From Fibrobacter succinogenes (GTDB taxonomy: Bacteria; Fibrobacterota; Fibrobacteria; Fibrobacterales; Fibrobacteraceae): 64,000 bases of DNA. Each line of letters begins with the position of its first letter. Positions within the stretch are counted from its first letter, which is position 1. Location: the NCBI GenBank assembly GCA_902791475.1, contig CADAWC010000030.1, positions 205-64,204 of the forward strand. Direction: 5' to 3'. A program made the position numbers and the translations under genes. The notes below the pieces were generated by a model. It was given only the letters and a program-made list of their open reading frames with translations. It made no database searches and had not been told where the DNA came from. Shown piece after piece: positions 21,466-38,388 of the stretch.

Positions 21466-22773
21466 TTATTCTTCCCTGAAGATGATTTTGCATTTCGGAA
21501 CGAAGCGGAATCCACCACGACGATGGCGTTCGATTTCGAAGTACTTCTTCACACCTTCACTCGGATGTTCCGGATCGTCAGAGCCATTGATATGGGCAAT
21601 AACGCGGTTCAACCTGCTCTCGAAGTTCGGGCGAAGGGGGTCCATGCAAATAGCCGGATCGCGCTTGAATTCGCGGTTTTCGTATTCTTCACGGCCGGTC
21701 ACAGTGTATTCGCGGAGCAAGTTGCGGAGGATTCGAGCCGGAACGTTACGCATGAGGTGTTTGCTGTTCACGGAAATCGAGTCATCGCTCTTGTAGTACA
21801 CGATTGTGACGGAATCGTTCATAGCATCGAGGAGCTGTTCATGAGCCTTCTGGATCGGAGCCCAAGCTTCGAATTCCTGCTTCACGACAGAGCTCATGAG
21901 CTTAAGGAACGGTTCGGAAGCGTTCACGTTAGCCTTGAAATTAAATTCAAGAATATAAGCCGGAGCACCGTAGTAGCAATCCTTTTCGATGAGGAGGGCG
22001 CCAGTCTTCGGGTCGCGGATGTCGGTCAGAGAACGGACGCAGCCAATGCTCTTTTCGACGTCGTTCTTCCATTCGAGGTTGTGTTCCTTGATGCAGTCTT
22101 CAAACGTTGCATGACGGCCAACAAGTTCACCCTTGATATAGACGCCGCCGTCTTCCTTCATTTCGGCAGGGACTCTATTTTCAAGAGCTTCAATAAACGA
22201 GGTCTGCGTGGCAAGGTAGCTAATGTGTTCGTATGCAGGCGTGTTCAAGAGGAGAGGTCCGATGTTGATCATGCTGCGGATCCAGCGCATCGGGTTCGCG
22301 GCGAGCACACCCGGAGTCTCGAACTGGAACGTGAAGTCCACCCTGCGATTGCCATCAATAACGTCGTTACGGAGGATGTTTGCCTTCGTAAGGAACGGGT
22401 AACGTTTCGGGATGATTTCCAAGCAGAGTTCGCGAGCATCTTCAGCAGAGTAGAACGAAGAGACGAACGGCAAGTAGGAGCGGAGAACGCTACGAGCGGG
22501 AACTGCTTCAAATGCAGCGCAACGCTTCACGATGCGTTCGATGAATTCATCAGGATTTTCACCGCGTTCGTACAACCACGCGACGATGTTGTCCATTATG
22601 AAACGGTAAGCGCTTTCATCTACGTATGAATCTTCGAAGTACAAATCATTTAGGAGTTTCACGTTGAATCGCGAATCTCGTTTGACCAAGGTCAAAATGT
22701 CCTTGACCGGGTAAGACATCAGTAATTCAATGTGTGCTAGCTGAAGGAATAGATTTGAAACCATTTCACTCAC
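21466..22773 (-). CDS. Putative transcriptional regulator with C-terminal winged-helix domain and unrecognised N-terminal sensor region
   Basis: C-terminus RNVPARILRNLLRE..GREEYENREFKRDP..NFESRLNRV..IERHRRGGFRF resembles the OmpR-like wHTH of GAF-sensor regulators. Confidence 0.55.
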   Translation of the reverse strand: MSEMVSNLFLQLAHIELLMSYPVKDILTLVKRDSRFNVKLLNDLYFEDSYVDESAYRFIMDNIVAWLYERGENPDEFIERIVKRCAAFEAVPARSVLRSYLPFVSSFYSAEDARELCLEIIPKRYPFLTKANILRNDVIDGNRRVDFTFQFETPGVLAANPMRWIRSMINIGPLLLNTPAYEHISYLATQTSFIEALENRVPAEMKEDGGVYIKGELVGRHATFEDCIKEHNLEWKNDVEKSIGCVRSLTDIRDPKTGALLIEKDCYYGAPAYILEFNFKANVNASEPFLKLMSSVVKQEFEAWAPIQKAHEQLLDAMNDSVTIVYYKSDDSISVNSKHLMRNVPARILRNLLREYTVTGREEYENREFKRDPAICMDPLRPNFESRLNRVIAHINGSDDPEHPSEGVKKYFEIERHRRGGFRFVPKCKIIFREE

Positions 22774-22873: not shown

Positions 22874-24793
22874 ATGGCTGAAATTCACCTTTTATCCGAT
22901 GAAATCATCAATAAAATTGCTGCTGGCGAGGTCATTGAGCGCCCTGCATCGGCTGTCAAGGAACTTATAGAGAACGCAATCGACGCCGGAGCAACCCGAA
23001 TTCAAGTCCAGATTGAACAAGGTGGAAAGAAAAAAATCCAGGTCACAGACAACGGTAAGGGCATGGGAGCCGCCGATTTGGATCTGTGCTACCTCCGCCA
23101 CACTACATCCAAACTAACAAACGCAGACGACTTATTCCACCTCCATACAAATGGTTTCCGCGGTGAAGCAGTCGCCTCCATCGCAGCCGTTTCGAAGCTG
23201 ACCATCACGAGTGCCACGCAAGAAGGCGAAAGTGGCCGTATCGTCGTGAAGGGTGGCGAAGTTATCGAAAAAGAAGATATCCAGGCAAGCCGTGGCACCA
23301 CGTTTCTCGTTGAAGATTTGTTTTACAACACGCCCGTGCGCCGCACGTTCCTCGGCAGTGAAACGTCCGAGTGCTCCCGCATTTTAGACATTGTATTAAA
23401 GACCGCCATTTCGCACCCGGAAATCCGTTTTGACTATAAAGTTGGCGATAGGACGGTCTTCACAGGCGTTCCCGGAGAACTCCGCAGCCGCATCGCCGAA
23501 GCCATCGGTTCCAAGGTCGCCAAGGGTCTGCTCCCCGTTGATTACACCGAAGCAGGCGTCCATGTGACAGGCTATATCTCGCCCACGACCGAAACGAACG
23601 GCAAACGCAACCACCAGTTCCTTTTCATGAGGAACCGCCCCATCGAAAACAAGATGGTAAGCAAGGCTGTTTCGCAAGCGTACGAGCCGTATGGAGCACA
23701 GTGCAAGCCCGTAACGGTACTGTTCCTCGACATGCCGGACATGGAATTCGACATCAACGTGCACCCAGCCAAGCGTGAAGTCCGTTTCGCTAACGGGAAC
23801 TTGGTGTTCCTTGTCGTCACGCACGCCATCCGCGATACGTTTACTAAGGATTTGGAAGCGCACTCCCCCATCATCGACTTGAGCGATGAATTTATGGGAG
23901 GCCCGGCACCTGCAGCAGCTCCGGCCGTAAAGTCCGAGATGCCGGGAACTTTCGAGATGCCGGCACAGCCGCAAAACGACTTGCCATGGGAAAATCCGTT
24001 CCAGCAGGCAAAGCCATACGCCGCAGCATCTCAGCAGCCAAGTTTTGCAAGCAAGCCTTACACTCAACCGGCAAAACCTGCAAACACGCTTTCGGACAAA
24101 AAGTCTAAATACGACGTAAGCGACGATGTTCAGGATCTCTTTTCGCTCCCTGAATACGGCAAGATTATTTCGCTGGAACCCGACCACAGTAAGCCCGCTC
24201 CGCCTCCCGAGACGCCGTGGGCGCCGCCCTCGTTCTTCCAGATTGCAAACACGTATATCGCCGGCGAAGATTCCAATGGTCTATTGATTATCGACCAGCA
24301 CGCCGCCCACACGCGAGTGCTCTTTGAACAGGCAATGGAATCGCTCCAGAACAACATCATGCAGGACAGCCAGGAACTCCTGTTCCCGGAACTCATCGAC
24401 CTTTCCAAGCAAGAGAAAGAAATCTTCCGAAACGTCGATGAGCAACTGCGCAAGCTCGGATTCTTTGTCGAGCCGTTCGGAGGCGACACCTACCAGATCC
24501 GCTCGATTCCTAGTGCTCTCCCGCTTTCGCGTGCCGCCAAAGCGGTTCACGACTTCTTGAACGATGTCGACGAAAACGACACCAAGAATGACATGGTCAA
24601 GTTCCAGGAAGCAATTGCGAAATCCTGGGCAAAGACGAATGCTTACCAGGCGGGCGACAAGCTCAAGCCCGAAGAAATCACGGCACTCGTCGGCCAGTTG
24701 ATGATTACGCAGGATCCGCTCAAGTCCCCGTTCGGGAGCCCGACGCTCATGCGCTTAACGCTTGAGGAACTGAGCAAGAAATTCAGACACTAG
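22874..24793 (+). CDS. mutL: DNA mismatch repair protein MutL
   Basis: KIAAGEVIERPASAVKELIENAIDAGA, DNGKGM, RHTTSK, GFRGEAVASI, DINVHPAKREV. Confidence 0.97.
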   Translation: MAEIHLLSDEIINKIAAGEVIERPASAVKELIENAIDAGATRIQVQIEQGGKKKIQVTDNGKGMGAADLDLCYLRHTTSKLTNADDLFHLHTNGFRGEAVASIAAVSKLTITSATQEGESGRIVVKGGEVIEKEDIQASRGTTFLVEDLFYNTPVRRTFLGSETSECSRILDIVLKTAISHPEIRFDYKVGDRTVFTGVPGELRSRIAEAIGSKVAKGLLPVDYTEAGVHVTGYISPTTETNGKRNHQFLFMRNRPIENKMVSKAVSQAYEPYGAQCKPVTVLFLDMPDMEFDINVHPAKREVRFANGNLVFLVVTHAIRDTFTKDLEAHSPIIDLSDEFMGGPAPAAAPAVKSEMPGTFEMPAQPQNDLPWENPFQQAKPYAAASQQPSFASKPYTQPAKPANTLSDKKSKYDVSDDVQDLFSLPEYGKIISLEPDHSKPAPPPETPWAPPSFFQIANTYIAGEDSNGLLIIDQHAAHTRVLFEQAMESLQNNIMQDSQELLFPELIDLSKQEKEIFRNVDEQLRKLGFFVEPFGGDTYQIRSIPSALPLSRAAKAVHDFLNDVDENDTKNDMVKFQEAIAKSWAKTNAYQAGDKLKPEEITALVGQLMITQDPLKSPFGSPTLMRLTLEELSKKFRH

Positions 24794-25921
24794 TTCGCTA
24801 GAAGTCTTACCGACATCCAGAGCCTTGCGGAGACGCAAGGCTATTTCGTCTGCAGACCCAATATCTTGCTGGAAAAGTGCATCGACAATAGCATCGGCCA
24901 TGCGGTCGTTCAGCTTATGGCGAATGATAAATTCCGGAGTCACGCCGCAGCCAAAAATTGCATTCGGGAGCGACAGGAATTCGGACTTGACCATAAACTT
25001 GCCCATGGCGTACGTGAGGAAATCCGGCATCGTACAAGCGGCAAACGGAATCCCGACACAAGCCATTTCAAGCGTACTCGTACCAAACGACGTAATCGCC
25101 GCCGAATATGCCGAGTAAAAATTCAAACGTTCACTAATAAGCTTTGGAGCCACAACGACTTTTAGCCAGCTCGGTAGGCGCCCGTCATAAAGCTTTTCAA
25201 GCGCCACCAAAAGCGGCACTTCCAAATGTTCACGCGAAGCAACGACAATCACATCTGGGAGCGGTCCCACATTGCGTTCCGCCCACACATTGCGATACCT
25301 TTCAGCAACCGTTACAAAAGATGGCAAGTTGCGCAGAGCGCTATCACGGCGGCTTCCCGGCAAAAGCAACATGTCAGACCGAGGTTCAACCTGGTCATAA
25401 ACCCAACCTGCAATCGGATGCTTGATACGAACCGTTTCAACGCCCATCTGCTGGTAAGCCTTTGCTTCAATATCAAAGAATACCGCCAAACGGATATTGT
25501 TAGCTTGCTTAAAGAGGCTTGCCCGCTTGGATTTCCACGCCCAGACCTGCGGAGGCGCCACATAAAGCATGGGCTTTCCCCACTTTTTAGCAAGACGCGC
25601 AAGCTTCATGTTAAAGCCAGGATAGTCAATCGCCACAATGCCAAGGCATTTCTTGGATTCTGCGGCATCGCTCAAGACTTCAAAAATGTTCTTTAACGAG
25701 AAATACTTCGGCACCACATCGCCCACGCCCGAAACCGGGAGTTCGTTGTAATCCCACAAGGGCTGTAACCCTTTCTCCTGCATCAACGGACCGCCCAAGC
25801 CAATGACCTTAAAGCCCTGCTGCACGGCAGTCGACACCATCTCGGCGCCAATCATGTCGCCGGAATCCTCCCCTGCACAGAAGAGGATATAAGGAGAATT
25901 TTCTTCGTTAACGTTTTGCAC
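24755..25921 (-). CDS. lpxB: Lipid-A-disaccharide synthase
   Basis: AGEDSGD, IDYPGFN, YVAPPQVWAWK, LLPGSR, GTSTLE, SLPN. Confidence 0.93.
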   Translation of the reverse strand: MQNVNEENSPYILFCAGEDSGDMIGAEMVSTAVQQGFKVIGLGGPLMQEKGLQPLWDYNELPVSGVGDVVPKYFSLKNIFEVLSDAAESKKCLGIVAIDYPGFNMKLARLAKKWGKPMLYVAPPQVWAWKSKRASLFKQANNIRLAVFFDIEAKAYQQMGVETVRIKHPIAGWVYDQVEPRSDMLLLPGSRRDSALRNLPSFVTVAERYRNVWAERNVGPLPDVIVVASREHLEVPLLVALEKLYDGRLPSWLKVVVAPKLISERLNFYSAYSAAITSFGTSTLEMACVGIPFAACTMPDFLTYAMGKFMVKSEFLSLPNAIFGCGVTPEFIIRHKLNDRMADAIVDALFQQDIGSADEIALRLRKALDVGKTSSELVSEFLAQFLKR

Positions 25922-28900
25922 GATTCGATACCCAAACCTTCAGAGCGCCCAAATCTGTTTTAAGCCACTGCAACAATTCCTGAGTATATACAACTTTATA
26001 TTTTTTTAGGACAACGACATGTTCAAATCCGGAATCTGCCTCCAAATGGAACACCATTTGGCACCCATGGCAGTACTCATCGGCCAAATTGGCCTTCATT
26101 TCGACATCTAGCTTGTCCAAAAATTCATCTGTCAGCATGCCGACGGTGAAATTTGCATGGATGTAATCCACCATGTCGCAACGCACGCGGTCAAGCTGAA
26201 TCACTTCTTCGACGATAATCTGGTAGCCATCGCGGTCGCGCTGCTGTTCCAAGACACCCTTCACAAGCACGCGGTCATCGACAGAAACCGTATCGCGCAA
26301 GCGTTCCCAGACGTCCTTCTTGAAGAACATTTCGATTTCACCCTGGAAATCCTGGATTGCGCCAGAGCCAATCGTATCACCGCGCTTTGTTTCGATGGAG
26401 CGCATGCGAATAACGACACCGCCCACAACAACCGTATCGCCCACATAGCGGGTGATTTCGTCTTCCGAGAGCGAGCAGCTCGTAAATCCCTGTAATTCCG
26501 GGCGGAACTCGTCAAGCGGATGCCCAGAGAGGAAAAGCCCGAGCACGCTGCGTTCCTTGTTGAGCATTTCCATCGCCGTCCATTCTTCGGCTTCTTCCAG
26601 AACTTCGGCAGTGTTCGGCATGGCGGCAGGGCCACCCAAGTCAAACAGAGAGACCTGGCCTTTGGCCTTGTCTTCCTGACTGCGCATAGCGACTTCCAAA
26701 GCGCGGTCCACTGTCGCGACCTGCACAGCACGGCTACCCGGCAAATCGTCCAAGGCGCCCGCCATGATCAAGCATTCCAAAACCTTCTTGTTAAGCGGCG
26801 GGCGTTTTTCAGGCTGGGCCGCCTGGTATTCCGTCACACGCTTGCAAAAATCAAAAATATCCTTGTAGATGCCACGACGTTCGCGTTCCGCGACCACGTC
26901 TTCGACAACAGCAATACCCACGTTGCGGATACCCGCAAGACCGTAAAGAATCTGGCCCTTCGTATTCGCCGAGAACACGCCCAAAGACGTATTGATGTTC
27001 GGCGAAAGGACTTCGATACCGAGGCGCTTGCATTCCAAAATGATGGTCACCGTATCTTCGGTCTTACCCATCTTAGAAGTCATGGATGCCGCCATGTATT
27101 CCGGACCGTAATGCGTCTTGAGGTACGCCGTCTGGTAAGCCACGTAAGCGTAAGCAGCAGCATGGCTCTTGTTAAATGCGTATCCGCAGAACGGGAGCAC
27201 GGCATCCCAGACCTTCTGGATCATCGCCTTGTCGTAGCCCTTGTCCAAGCACTTCTGGAAGAATTCCGGCTCGAGCTTCGCCATCTTTTCCGGCATCTTC
27301 TTAGCCATGATACGGCGGATGTTGTCAGCGCCACCCAGCGAGTAGCCACCCAAAATCTGGGCAAGCTTCATCACCTGTTCCTGGTACACGATAACGCCGT
27401 ACGTTTCGCCAAGCACCTGTTCCAAGTCCGGATGGTAGCAGTCAATCTCTTCCTTACCGTTCTTACGGGCAATGAAGTGCGGAATCTGGTCAATCGGCCC
27501 CGGACGGTACAGGGCGTTCATAGCGATAAGGTCAAAGATTCGGGTCGGCTTCAGTTCGCGCAGGTACTTCTGCATACCCGGAGATTCGAACTGGAACACA
27601 GTTGTCGTAAGGCCCTTGCCCAAGAGATCAAACGTTGCCTTGTCATCAATCGGAATCTTGTTCATCACAAGCTTGATGTTGCGGTTCTGTTCGACCATCT
27701 TCACCGTATCCTGAATGATGGACAAGTTGATAAGCCCAAGGAAGTCCATCTTCAAAAGTCCGATGTCTTCGGCGTAGTGCTTATCGTACATCACCACCGG
27801 CGTATCTTCCGGGGCGGCACGATACAATGGCGCAAGGTTGTAAATCGGAGTCGGCGTAATCACCACGCCGCAAGCATGCACGCCCGTCTGGCGCGGCAAA
27901 TCTTCAAGCTTTTTCGCGACTTCCCACAAGTTCTGGTAACTAGCACGGCTGTTGATCATCGCCTGCAAAGGTTCCGGGCTGTAACCGTCTTCGAGGTTGT
28001 TGCCCTTCTTGTCCTTACCCGTCCAGGCCTGCTTTAGGCTAAAGTTCAAAGTGCGCTGCGGGAATAGCTTTGTAATGCCCTTTGCTTCGGCAGGCGGAAT
28101 CCCGAGCACGCGCGCAACGTCCGTAATCACCGCCTTCGACTTGAGCATACCGTAGGTAATAATCTGGCCCACGCACTCCTTGCCGTACTTGTCCGTCACG
28201 TACTGGATCACGCGGCCACGGTCTCGGTCCGCAAAGTCCGTATCGATATCCGGCATGGACACACGTTCCGGGTTCAGGAATCGTTCAAAAAGGAGGTCGA
28301 AAGTAAGCGGGTCAATGTCGGTAATACCGATGATGTAAGTGACCAAGGAACCAGCAGCAGAACCACGCCCCGGGCCCACGGGAATGCCATGTTCACGGGA
28401 CCAGTTGATGAAGTCCCACACAATGAGCAAGTAGCCCGCAACGTTCATGTTACGGATACAGTTAAGCTCCTTGTACATGCGCTTGCCCACGTTCGTTTCG
28501 TGAGCCGGGAACTTAAAATCTTCATCGGGGAATCGCCACTTCAAGCGTTCATTGCAAAGGTGGATGATATAGATATCGGAATCGGAACCCGGTTTGCACC
28601 AGCGGTGAACGTTCTTGTCCCATGCCTTCTGATCATCGGCATCGAAGAATTCCGGCTGCGAGAGGCGGTCGATTTCTGCATTGTCCGCATCGGTCAGCGC
28701 ATCTTCGGCAATGCCTTTTTCGGCACAGTAATTTGCCTTGACCTTCTTTTTGCGGTCCTTGATGACGCCCTTGAGTTCTCGTTCGCGGACGACCGGATAT
28801 TCCGCATCGTATTCCGCCTTCATGATGGCCTTGATGTTCTGGTATTCCTCGGAAGCGAGGAATTCATCAGGAATCTTGAAACGCGGCCAGAATTCATCAC

Positions 28901-29765
28901 CGATACCGGTTTTCACGGTAAAGTTACAGCGTTCGGCAATTTTCACCGTATTTTCGATGGCGCCCGGAATATGCCCGAACAGCTCCACCATTTCCTTTTC
29001 GGTACGGAAATAGAACTTTTCCGTCGGGAAGCGCTTGTCTTCAAAACCGTTCAGCGTGACCTTAAGCGAGATGCAGCGCAGAATCTTGTGCGATGTGGCG
29101 TCTTCGGGCTTAATGTAATGGACATCGCCCACGGCAACGACTTCACGACCGTACTTTTTCGCCAGTTCCACGTTGAATTCGTTCACGTGCTTTTGCTGCG
29201 GAATCCCGTTATCGCAAACAGAGATATACAGGTGGTCGTGGTCAAAAATCTCGTTCAGGCGGTCCATGTACTCGAGCGCAAGGGAATCCCTGCCCGAAGC
29301 CACATTCTGGCCGTAACGGCTAAAATAATCGCCCGCAATGGCGATAATACCTTCCTTAAATTCGTTAATCGTCTCGAGCGGCACGGACGGGATTTCTGCC
29401 CAGCGCTCCCCGTCTTCGTAGCGGTAACTCACAATGCGGAGCAGATTGTAATAGCCCTTTTCGTTCTCGACGAGGAGCGTCAATCGTTCAAATGTTGTCG
29501 GATCTTTCTGGCTTGCACTCGGCGTATCCACGTAAATGTGGCAGCCATAAACAGTCTTGACCGGCGGGAGGCCCTGTTCCTTACGCTTTTTGTTCAGTTC
29601 CTTGCCACGCGTCTGGATTTCAAGAATACCAAACATGGCACCATGGTCCGTCAAAGCAACAGCAGGTGCGTTTTCTGCCGCAGCAGCCGCCAAAATATCA
29701 TCAAGTCGGGCCGAAGCCTGCAAAATCGAAAATTCAGAATGAGTCTGTAAATGAACGAACGCCAT
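25908..29765 (-). CDS. dnaE: DNA polymerase III alpha subunit
   Basis: PHP domain, GPGRGSAAGS, ERFLNPERVSMPDIDTDF, LLKMDFLGL, FQFES, AFNKSHAAAY, OB fold. Confidence 0.98.
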   Translation of the reverse strand: MAFVHLQTHSEFSILQASARLDDILAAAAAENAPAVALTDHGAMFGILEIQTRGKELNKKRKEQGLPPVKTVYGCHIYVDTPSASQKDPTTFERLTLLVENEKGYYNLLRIVSYRYEDGERWAEIPSVPLETINEFKEGIIAIAGDYFSRYGQNVASGRDSLALEYMDRLNEIFDHDHLYISVCDNGIPQQKHVNEFNVELAKKYGREVVAVGDVHYIKPEDATSHKILRCISLKVTLNGFEDKRFPTEKFYFRTEKEMVELFGHIPGAIENTVKIAERCNFTVKTGIGDEFWPRFKIPDEFLASEEYQNIKAIMKAEYDAEYPVVRERELKGVIKDRKKKVKANYCAEKGIAEDALTDADNAEIDRLSQPEFFDADDQKAWDKNVHRWCKPGSDSDIYIIHLCNERLKWRFPDEDFKFPAHETNVGKRMYKELNCIRNMNVAGYLLIVWDFINWSREHGIPVGPGRGSAAGSLVTYIIGITDIDPLTFDLLFERFLNPERVSMPDIDTDFADRDRGRVIQYVTDKYGKECVGQIITYGMLKSKAVITDVARVLGIPPAEAKGITKLFPQRTLNFSLKQAWTGKDKKGNNLEDGYSPEPLQAMINSRASYQNLWEVAKKLEDLPRQTGVHACGVVITPTPIYNLAPLYRAAPEDTPVVMYDKHYAEDIGLLKMDFLGLINLSIIQDTVKMVEQNRNIKLVMNKIPIDDKATFDLLGKGLTTTVFQFESPGMQKYLRELKPTRIFDLIAMNALYRPGPIDQIPHFIARKNGKEEIDCYHPDLEQVLGETYGVIVYQEQVMKLAQILGGYSLGGADNIRRIMAKKMPEKMAKLEPEFFQKCLDKGYDKAMIQKVWDAVLPFCGYAFNKSHAAAYAYVAYQTAYLKTHYGPEYMAASMTSKMGKTEDTVTIILECKRLGIEVLSPNINTSLGVFSANTKGQILYGLAGIRNVGIAVVEDVVAERERRGIYKDIFDFCKRVTEYQAAQPEKRPPLNKKVLECLIMAGALDDLPGSRAVQVATVDRALEVAMRSQEDKAKGQVSLFDLGGPAAMPNTAEVLEEAEEWTAMEMLNKERSVLGLFLSGHPLDEFRPELQGFTSCSLSEDEITRYVGDTVVVGGVVIRMRSIETKRGDTIGSGAIQDFQGEIEMFFKKDVWERLRDTVSVDDRVLVKGVLEQQRDRDGYQIIVEEVIQLDRVRCDMVDYIHANFTVGMLTDEFLDKLDVEMKANLADEYCHGCQMVFHLEADSGFEHVVVLKKYKVVYTQELLQWLKTDLGALKVWVSNRAKR

Positions 29766-36128: not shown

Positions 36129-38388
36129 AAGCTTCTTCCATCATTTTACGGACATACGGGAGCAGTTCGTGGCGCGGGTCCATTTCATCGCCGCCGTGAG
36201 TTTTCTTGAATTCGACCGTATCTATCGGTTCAAGAATCTTGATGTTCACCGGGTGATGCTTGGAATCCTTGCGGTGTTCCCAGAGCAAGTCAGAACCACG
36301 AGTGACCATCGGCAATATAATTGCGTTTGCCTCGACGGCAAGTCTAAAGCAACCGCTCTTGAAAGCGACCATGCCATCGCGCTTGCTGCGGGTACCTTCC
36401 GGGAAAACGAAGAGTCTCGGCATCTTGCCCGACTGGATAGCCTTTTGGATAATCGCAGCGCCGCCGCCCTTTTCGCGGTCGATAAAGACGCAACCGAGCT
36501 TGTGCATCCAGAAGTTCAGAATCGGGATGCGCTGCAACTGCGTCTTCGCGATAAAGCCCACGGTACGCTGCAAGGCCAAAAACGCAAGCGGGATATCCAG
36601 GTACGAACGGTGGTTGCCCATCACGAACACCGGGCGAGTCCAGTCCACTTTCGCAAGTTGCGCCTGGTCTTCAATCGTCAAATCCACACGCAAGACTTTC
36701 ATGCAGAAGCGGGAGAAGACCTGCACCTTTTCTTCAAGCCAAGGATCCAAGTCTTTACGACGGAAAATGTACATGAATGCAATCTTGAAAATATATTCGA
36801 GCATAAACGCAAAAATTCTTGCCGCTCCATATATCTTAAATAACATAACTGGCATATTACACTCTGTTTTTGAATTTTCCCTGGGCAAAAAACGAGACCG
36901 TTTGAGTTTCGTCAGGCGCCCTTTCCAATATCTACGTTTGCAATATAGCAAAACCAAAAAAGATTCAGCCCGCGTGACCCCGACGTAAAACAATCGGCGT
37001 TCCTCATCGAGCTGTTTTTGACGCTCTTTACGCGTGCCCAAGCATGAACCTGGCGTAAGCCCCTCGGACATTCCCGCATAATAGACCACCGCATACTGGA
37101 GCCCCTTGGACGCATGGACTGTTTCCACATGGATTCCATTTTCAAGGACTTCGCCCTCCCCCTCTACGTTACCTGCCTCCGACACGACCGTCCCTGCGAT
37201 CGGGAGATGCGCATCGCGAAGCGCTTCTTCGTAATATAGGCGTTGCCTATTATAGCGCACGAGGATTGCAAAGTTTTTCCATTGGAGGTCATAACTTTCG
37301 CGGAGCAACTTGATGCTCGTGATGATTTTTTGCATTTCTTCGACAGGGTCTTCACTCACCCAGATTTCGGGTTCACGGTTTTCCTTAAAAATCGGCGAGC
37401 CGCCCGAGCCATTCATGTTGCCCGCACGCAAGACCTTCCGCAAGTGGATAGGCTTGTTTTCAAAAATCCTATTCGAAAAATGTAAAATGTTCGCGACCGA
37501 ACGATAATTCCATTCCAAGCGAATCAGAGAGCTCTCCTTGAAGTCATCGCGGAAACGGTTGATATTCCCGATATCGGCCCCACGGAATCCGTAAATGGCC
37601 TGGTCATCATCGCCCACAACAAACAACGACTTGCGCTCACCCAGCAGCGCTTTGACGAGTCGGTACTGCGACGGGTTGATGTCCTGATATTCATCGACAA
37701 GAATTTCGGTCCATTGATTTTGGAAATATGCGCGCGCCGACTCGTGATTTTCGAGCAAGTTTATCGCCTGGTAGATGAGGTCTTCGAAGACGACTTGACC
37801 CGATTCCAAGATGCGATTATGCAATGGTTCAAGTTTTTTGAGGAGCTTCGCGGGATGTGCATCCGAGAAAAGCTCTTCGCGCGAGAAGCGGAATTTTCGA
37901 CCGCCGAAACGCCTCCCGACTTTTGCGAGTTCCTGCATAAACGATTTGTCCGACGATTCCGTCGGGACCGGCATTTTCTTGAATCCGACAAGTTCGTACG
38001 CCGGGCAAGAGCTGCAAGCGCCCGCCCCACCTGTCATCCCGGATTCATTCCGGGATCGCCATTCTTCATCATGTTTAACAGTAACCTTAGATTTAAGAAT
38101 AAACAGCGCAAGCGAGTGGAATGTGCAGAGCCGCACACCCGCATTCGGGAAGAGCTTTTGCACACGTTCCCGCATTTCGGCTGCAGCCTTCGCCGTAAAC
38201 GTGAGCGCCAAGATTTTCTCGGGTTCAACGCCCGACATAATCCGGTACTGGATTCGCTTGGTCAAGACCGAAGTCTTTCCCGAACCTGCCCCTGCTAAAA
38301 TTAAAAGTTGTCCGTTCTTTTCATGATCGTGGAGTACCGCCGCACGTTGGTCGGAGTTCAACCCGACCAAAAGACTTTCTACATCCAT
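36112..38388 (-). CDS. Fusion: compact UvrD/Rep SF1A helicase + 1-acyl-sn-glycerol-3-phosphate acyltransferase (PlsC)
   Basis: AGAGSGKT, TFTAKAA, DEYQD, GDDDQAIYGFRGA, NYRS, TVHASKGLQY, EERRLFYVGVTRAE; then NHRSYLD, FIAK, FIDR, FPEGTRS in the same frame. Confidence 0.88.
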   Translation of the reverse strand: MDVESLLVGLNSDQRAAVLHDHEKNGQLLILAGAGSGKTSVLTKRIQYRIMSGVEPEKILALTFTAKAAAEMRERVQKLFPNAGVRLCTFHSLALFILKSKVTVKHDEEWRSRNESGMTGGAGACSSCPAYELVGFKKMPVPTESSDKSFMQELAKVGRRFGGRKFRFSREELFSDAHPAKLLKKLEPLHNRILESGQVVFEDLIYQAINLLENHESARAYFQNQWTEILVDEYQDINPSQYRLVKALLGERKSLFVVGDDDQAIYGFRGADIGNINRFRDDFKESSLIRLEWNYRSVANILHFSNRIFENKPIHLRKVLRAGNMNGSGGSPIFKENREPEIWVSEDPVEEMQKIITSIKLLRESYDLQWKNFAILVRYNRQRLYYEEALRDAHLPIAGTVVSEAGNVEGEGEVLENGIHVETVHASKGLQYAVVYYAGMSEGLTPGSCLGTRKERQKQLDEERRLFYVGVTRAESFLVLLYCKRRYWKGRLTKLKRSRFLPRENSKTECNMPVMLFKIYGAARIFAFMLEYIFKIAFMYIFRRKDLDPWLEEKVQVFSRFCMKVLRVDLTIEDQAQLAKVDWTRPVFVMGNHRSYLDIPLAFLALQRTVGFIAKTQLQRIPILNFWMHKLGCVFIDREKGGGAAIIQKAIQSGKMPRLFVFPEGTRSKRDGMVAFKSGCFRLAVEANAIILPMVTRGSDLLWEHRKDSKHHPVNIKILEPIDTVEFKKTHGGDEMDPRHELLPYVRKMMEEAYDRRL

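Follow-up and report, generated by a model that had tools for sequence, protein, structure and literature searches.

A MutL lacking most of the endonuclease metal ligands in Fibrobacter succinogenes and the class Fibrobacteria

Introduction

The MutL of Escherichia coli and similar bacteria is a matchmaker that does not nick DNA itself and works together with MutH, Dam and UvrD. Reviews divide bacterial mismatch repair into E. coli and its relatives, in which MutH is combined with a non-nicking MutL, and the rest, in which MutL makes the nick (PMC8744996, PMC2965676). In the gammaproteobacteria the loss of the MutL nuclease coincided with the gain of MutH, and the E. coli MutL also stimulates Vsr (PMC2292703). 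The endonuclease-type MutL is represented by the proteins of Bacillus subtilis (3gab, 3kdk), Neisseria gonorrhoeae (NgoL, 3ncv), Aquifex and Thermus, and in eukaryotes by PMS2 and MLH3. The zinc ligands of the B. subtilis protein are H464, E468, C573, C604 and H606, while the E. coli protein is without the sub-structure that carries motif V (PMC2965676).

Here we describe a MutL from a Fibrobacter succinogenes-type genome in which most of these ligands are replaced. The gene lies in a stretch of 64,000 nucleotides from contig CADAWC010000030.1, referred to as the window, and positions given without a contig are those of the window.

Results

The mutL gene and its product

The open reading frame at 22874..24793 of the forward strand encodes a protein of 639 residues and is a bona fide MutL, kept by selection. 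It scores 487.9 bits against the TIGR00585 profile, for which the curated cut-off is 180, and has the three-domain architecture of the family, with HATPase_c_3, DNA_mis_repair and MutL_C each above its Pfam cut-off. Over the C-terminal domain it shares 100% identity with the MutL of F. succinogenes S85 and with many independent assemblies, so the motif readings do not stem from a sequencing error. HMMER was used to set the motif positions by aligning the protein with the C-terminal domain of B. subtilis MutL (3gab, E 6e-23), and motif VI was placed by alignment within Fibrobacterota. The features of the gene are as follows.

22874..23878, forward strand: N-terminal GHKL ATPase and transducer domain, residues 1-335 (Pfam)
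23879..24223, forward strand: Pro/Ala/Gln-rich flexible linker, residues 336-450 (sequence)
24224..24790, forward strand: C-terminal dimerisation and putative former endonuclease domain, residues 451-639 (MutL_C, 1.4e-31)
24293..24328, forward strand: motif II remnant DQHAAHTRVLFE, residues 474-485, against DQHAAQERIKYE in B. subtilis (HMMER)
24371..24388, forward strand: motif III (clamp motif) QELLFP, residues 500-505, against QEMIVP in B. subtilis (HMMER)
24629..24637, forward strand: motif IV position AKT, A586-K587-T588, against S-C-K in B. subtilis (HMMER)
24725..24742, forward strand: motif V position SPFGSP, residues 618-623, against CPHGRP (HMMER)
24776..24790, forward strand: motif VI remnant KKFRH (alignment within Fibrobacterota)

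The ATP-site residues E30, N34, D59, R96 and K300, the counterparts of E29, N33, D58, R95 and K307 in E. coli, are intact, and they are unvarying among 20 nuclease-less MutL proteins compared. The endonuclease-type motif II, DQHA(X)2E(X)4E, is disrupted by the replacement of the ligand Glu (E468 in B. subtilis) with T480, and D474 and E485 of the motif are still present. At the motif IV position, where (A/S)C(K/R) would be expected, the ligand Cys is replaced by K587, and in place of the motif V sequence C(P/N)HGRP the Cys, His and Arg are changed to S618, F620 and S622. The residues equivalent to the five B. subtilis zinc ligands are H476, T480, K587, S618 and F620, so that four of the five are replaced. 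The endonuclease-type motif III, QxLLxP by the clamp-binding definition (PMC2965676), is present as QELLFP. In motif VI, F637 is found in 97% of the Fibrobacteria sequences and without exception in those from the other classes; the terminal Arg has been lost.

The alignment agrees with a first-pass annotation of the sequence, which had reported a Thr for the first Glu of motif II, SPFGSP for CPHGRP and a retained clamp-like SQELLFP, and all the motif positions that it named do fall inside its interval of 24290-24752. The SWAK that it placed at the ACK/ACR site indeed spans the motif IV position, the exact counterpart being AKT with K587 in the Cys column. Its proposal that this MutL cannot nick is likewise backed by strong sequence evidence, as the ligand columns are both changed and unconstrained in the class. 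The Fibrobacter MutL most likely does not nick DNA, and to call Fibrobacteria-type proteins "DNA mismatch repair endonuclease MutL", as automatic naming does, is probably wrong.

The AlphaFold (AF2) model of the C-terminal domain has a pLDDT of 90.8 and finds its best fold match in the B. subtilis domain (3kdk, TM 0.70-0.76), with a TM of 0.53-0.57 against the E. coli domain (1x9z). The motif V loop, with P619 and G621, is kept in the Fibrobacteria MutL. Sequence and model both indicate that the scaffold is that of a nicking-type MutL minus the catalytic metals and not a remodelled E. coli domain.

Conservation within Fibrobacterota

A search for MutL_C found the domain in 280 of the 296 Fibrobacterota genomes, and the motifs were compared in 61 genomes of the phylum, 31 of them from the class Fibrobacteria, and in another 20 Fibrobacter species. 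None of the 51 class-Fibrobacteria genomes sampled (families f1-f8) has the motif IV Cys or the Cys and His of motif V, whereas all 30 sampled from the other classes (f12-f20) have DQHAAHERxxxE, ACG or ACH (mostly as FACG) and CPHGRP. The lineage without the MutL nuclease site is the class Fibrobacteria and not the phylum Fibrobacterota; the alignment of Fibrobacterota C-terminal domains that the first-pass annotation had suggested shows the loss in every genome sampled from the class but not in the other classes, which are canonical. Such a sharp boundary offers a natural comparison for finding out what accompanied the loss of the nuclease.

Motif II differs among the sub-lineages of the class, being DQHAAH[T/S] in the genus Fibrobacter, DQNAAHQ and similar variants in f1-f4, NQQAAHE in f6-f7 and part of f5, and DQRAAHE in f8. 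The Glu column accordingly holds T or S in the genus and mostly Q, with some K, S or T, elsewhere in the order, and most members of f5-f8 still have E there, while the class consensus of motif V is [STA]-P-x-G. The variants are consistent with a metal site that was lost once, ancestrally, and has since drifted under relaxed constraint.

Within Fibrobacteria the most frequent residue accounts for 29-39% of sequences at four of the ligand columns, among them the H476 column with Gln at 29%, and for 68% at S618; D474 is retained in 58% of the class members. The surrounding positions Q475, A478, H479, R481, E485, Q500-L-L-F-P505, F535, G536, P546, L609, P615, P619, G621 and F637 are 94-100% conserved. 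No Fibrobacteria-specific conserved cluster of Asp, Glu, His or Cys that might replace the lost ligands was found in the class alignment, and the lack of constraint at the ligand columns argues against a re-built metal site. The clamp motif is found as QELLFP, QQLLFP or QQILFP in 60 of the 61 Fibrobacterota sequences, the exception being QRLLIP; its Q, LL and P show little or no variation throughout the phylum, and F504 is invariant in Fibrobacteria and conserved at 93% in the other classes. The dN/dS estimates from 21 Fibrobacter species are 0.05 (N-terminal domain), about 0.10 (C-terminal domain) and 0.27-0.36 (linker), and they are rough as dS is near saturation. Fibrobacter MutL's C-terminal domain is under purifying selection.

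Nuclease-less MutL proteins in other phyla

About 38 of the 150 nearest MutL representatives at 50% identity are nuclease-less, with one such cluster named as Calditrichia. In a named sample of 80 MutL proteins, the site is absent in all six clear Bacteroidota and in one Lentisphaerales metagenome-assembled genome (L124), and it is canonical in Bacillota, Pseudomonadota, Acidobacteriota, Planctomycetota, Chloroflexota, Verrucomicrobiota, Ignavibacteriota, Fidelibacterota and Latescibacterota. The Bacteroidota types include Chitinophaga, Cytophagales, Saprospiraceae, Ferruginibacter and Bacteroidales. The Bacteroidota, Lentisphaerales and Calditrichia proteins resemble those of Fibrobacteria in having lost the same three motifs, often with S-P-x-G at motif V, and in keeping the clamp motif; the three motifs read DPAAAHE, AASR and SPSGRP in the Lentisphaerales protein and DQHRAHE, FANK and DPSGNP in the Calditrichia proteins P0146 and P0271. 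No MutH was found in the seven genomes with a nuclease-less MutL that were searched, namely the six Bacteroidota and the Lentisphaerales genome.

MutL trees were built from the N-terminal domain (NTD) and from the C-terminal domain (CTD) with the ligand columns removed. Fibrobacteria and Bacteroidota form separate clades on both, with NTD/CTD support of 98/86 and 99/97, respectively, which rules out a common origin of the two by descent or transfer. The Bacteroidota MutL is sister to the canonical Ignavibacteriota, so the losses are convergent. The Lentisphaerales MutL is in turn sister to two canonical Verrucomicrobiota sequences (support 86 for NTD, 94 for CTD), and the placement of both groups beside canonical sisters implies at least three independent losses.

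Two side observations were made in these comparisons. One or two rhomboid-protease genes in the same direction lie directly downstream of mutL in four of the six Bacteroidota loci (L105, L116, L117 and L163), a conserved pairing that is seen in Bacteroidota and not in Fibrobacter. A further group of MutL proteins (P0166, P0182, P0188, P0224, P0240, P0243, P0253, P0257, P0262-P0264 and P0268) has G-D-P-H-G-R-P or H-D-[VI]-H-G-R-P for C-P-H-G-R-P and is otherwise canonical in its motifs; the Asp in place of the Cys may be an alternative metal ligand.

Candidate repair partners

The gene at 22874-24793 is the sole MutL in the genome by profile search, and a second mutL, which the first-pass annotation had named beforehand as evidence against its reading, is absent. 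Those of the further TIGR00585 matches that were examined were rejected as HtpG and a GHKL ATPase beside a Dcm-like methyltransferase. The latter, a MORC or BbrUII/HgiDII-like protein of 558 residues, follows a Dcm-type C5 methyltransferase in a restriction-modification-type pair (G000:C37:6028-8791, locus L002:342-3105), and it is because of this ATPase that the MutL profile has its second-best match. A single MutS was found in the genome; it has all of domains II-V and carries a clamp-like motif, QMDLF, at its C-terminus. This MutS1 is also the single MutS_V match.

The partner search was confined to named nuclease families, three of which, mutH, nucS/endoMS and vsr, had been put forward in the first-pass annotation. 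MutH, with which an E. coli-type MutL would co-occur, gave no match in this genome at E<=1. The genome is 94.8% complete, so that a gene absent here could be missing from the assembly alone, but the outcome for MutH was the same over 208 class genomes, of which 15 have MutH-family matches. Nearly all of these are open reading frames of 440-560 residues, commonly 470-490, and most contain two MutH-like domains and are Sau3AI-like; with so sporadic an occurrence they were rejected as a class-wide MutL partner. Genomes with the two-domain Sau3AI-like protein include G126, G170, G192, G195, G225, G227, G232 and G233, and G225 has two tandem copies. No true NucS/EndoMS was found, the only matches being sub-threshold ones to a protein of about 140 residues that is YraN-like by its motifs. 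MutS2/Smr was likewise rejected, since the sole Smr in the genome is a small stand-alone open reading frame.

Two vsr genes are present outside the window (G000:C37:21366-21806 and G000:C1:97154-97852, both forward strand). Vsr occurs in 133 of the 208 class genomes and in about 90% of the Fibrobacter species, but in only 12 of the 31 class genera, and so cannot be the general answer for the class. The C37 vsr does not adjoin a methyltransferase; it is flanked by a MutT-like NUDIX gene and a membrane protein on one side and by the gene of a 1166-residue protein on the other, which is followed by a UvrD-like open reading frame of 1177 residues in a RecBC/AddAB-like cluster. Helicases of the UvrD family number at least five in the genome. 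The one within the window, a UvrD/PcrA-family protein (767-residue open reading frame), lies 13 kb downstream of mutL at 37537-38361 on the reverse strand (G000:C30:37741-38565).

The genes around mutL were compared in nine class genomes, and no neighbour is common to the whole class. Nor does a recognisable nuclease lie beside mutL in these nine, except for an unrelated PD-(D/E)XK transposase-family gene in one. Divergent from mutL in the window, across a gap of about 100 bp, is a gene for a hypothetical protein of 435 residues (21466-22773, reverse strand), and this adjacency extends across the order Fibrobacterales, to Fibrobacter, most other Fibrobacteraceae genera, f2 and f3. The protein has farther paralogues elsewhere in the phylum, its last 110 or so residues are nearly invariant, and no Pfam or NCBIfam match was found for it. 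Its AF2 model (pLDDT 85.6), with an N-terminal half that is weakly H-NOX-like (E 0.03), does not look like a nuclease, and the protein was rejected as a nuclease candidate on the model.

On its other side mutL overlaps the oppositely oriented lpxB (24755-25921, reverse strand) at the 3′ ends by 39 bp (24755-24793), with dnaE (25908-29765, reverse strand) directly upstream of lpxB; in family f4 (G238) dnaE and mutL are co-directional neighbours. In genome G083, a MutL that seemed to be fused to an extra domain was rejected as such, the frame of 1153 residues being an overlapping frame in GC-rich DNA and the MutL ending normally.

Discussion

The reading that we favour, at a probability of roughly 0.45, is that the Fibrobacter MutL is a nuclease-dead, clamp-bound and ATP-driven matchmaker that uses pre-existing breaks. 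MutS on a mismatch would recruit MutL, which would bind the sliding clamp via QELLFP and would load a UvrD-type helicase at an existing break in the new strand, either a 3′ end or an Okazaki-fragment gap. The E. coli MutL acts in this manner on pre-nicked substrates without MutH. The ligands are lost and the constraint is relaxed at their columns while the rest of the protein is under purifying selection, and a single MutS and a single MutL are accompanied by neither MutH nor NucS; from this we infer the inability to nick, the clamp binding and the use of pre-existing breaks. The reading does not sit well with the survival of D474, H476 and E485 in the genus Fibrobacter, and a pathway from pre-existing breaks alone would serve the leading strand poorly; a partner from outside the named nuclease families would, moreover, have escaped the search. 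The three surviving residues, together with the predicted nuclease-type fold and its motif V loop, might instead mean that MutL still nicks through a re-built or minimal metal site formed by these or other residues. We hold this to be very improbable, as D474 is kept by little more than half of the class, Gln is the top residue in the H476 column, and the class has no new conserved cluster of Asp, Glu, His or Cys. That mutL is decaying into a pseudogene or was produced by faulty assembly is refuted by the intact frame, the identical sequence in many assemblies, the intact gene in 280 of the 296 phylum genomes and the dN/dS of 0.05-0.10.

A serious, if somewhat unlikely, alternative to the matchmaker is that MutL recruits and activates a dedicated nuclease that was not recognised, a MutH analogue from an unrelated or uncharacterised family. 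The loss of the site is ancient and class-wide, yet MutS and MutL stay under selection; in the gammaproteobacteria the same loss was paired with the gain of MutH, and at least three independent losses suggest that a substitute was available. The searches speak against it: the MutH-family matches are Sau3AI-like and restricted to 15 of 208 class genomes, the NucS matches are weak and point to a YraN-like protein of 140 residues, the sole Smr is small and stands alone, Vsr is missing from most genera, and no conserved nuclease adjoins mutL in the nine genomes compared, the divergent neighbour not being nuclease-like. It is more improbable still that post-replicative correction is weak or absent and that MutS and MutL are kept for tasks in which MutL does not have to nick, such as the rejection of homeologous recombination or the stimulation of Vsr in very-short-patch repair. 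Vsr is stimulated by MutL in E. coli, two vsr genes are present here and most of the class genomes and Fibrobacter species have one, and Fibrobacter carries many restriction-modification genes, including the Dcm-like methyltransferase. However, the 19 of the 31 class genera without Vsr still keep a nuclease-less MutL, and MutL and MutS have both strictly retained their clamp motifs, which points to a coupling with replication.

Fibrobacteria, like the sampled Bacteroidota, fit neither of the two groups into which the reviews place bacterial mismatch repair, and this misfit puts the source of the strand cut, and hence strand discrimination, in question. Nothing on a nuclease-less MutL outside the MutH-bearing gammaproteobacteria, Fibrobacter and Bacteroidota included, was found in the openly searchable full-text literature, although an earlier description is possible. 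New in this work are the boundary at the class, the convergent losses, the analysis of selection and the negative outcome of the searches for a nuclease. In our estimate the chances are about even that Fibrobacteria and, independently, Bacteroidota and some Lentisphaerota and Calditrichota carry out replication-coupled repair with a dead MutL and no MutH, in which the incision would come from clamp-marked pre-existing ends alone or from a nuclease family that has yet to be tied to repair. If this is true, bacteria would have a third way of repairing mismatches. Bacteroidota are a dominant phylum of the gut and of the environment with good genetic tools.

Comparison with known MutL types

The Fibrobacter MutL combines traits of both described types. 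With the endonuclease-type proteins it shares the order of the domains, the fold of the C-terminal domain, with the motif V loop as far as the model indicates, the clamp motif QxLLxP and a host genome without MutH, and its C-terminal domain is most similar in sequence to this type (B. subtilis, E 6e-23); it departs from them in that the equivalents of E468, C573, C604 and H606 and the Arg of HGRP are replaced. It resembles the E. coli-type MutL in lacking the metal site while keeping, as judged from sequence, the ATPase, the dimerisation domain and the clamp-binding motif, and its presumed role is to activate other enzymes. Unlike in the E. coli type, MutH is absent from the Fibrobacter genome and generally from the class, and the model shows neither the shortened motif II helix nor the loss of the motif V sub-structure. 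The loss of the metal site in Fibrobacteria is independent of that in the gammaproteobacteria.
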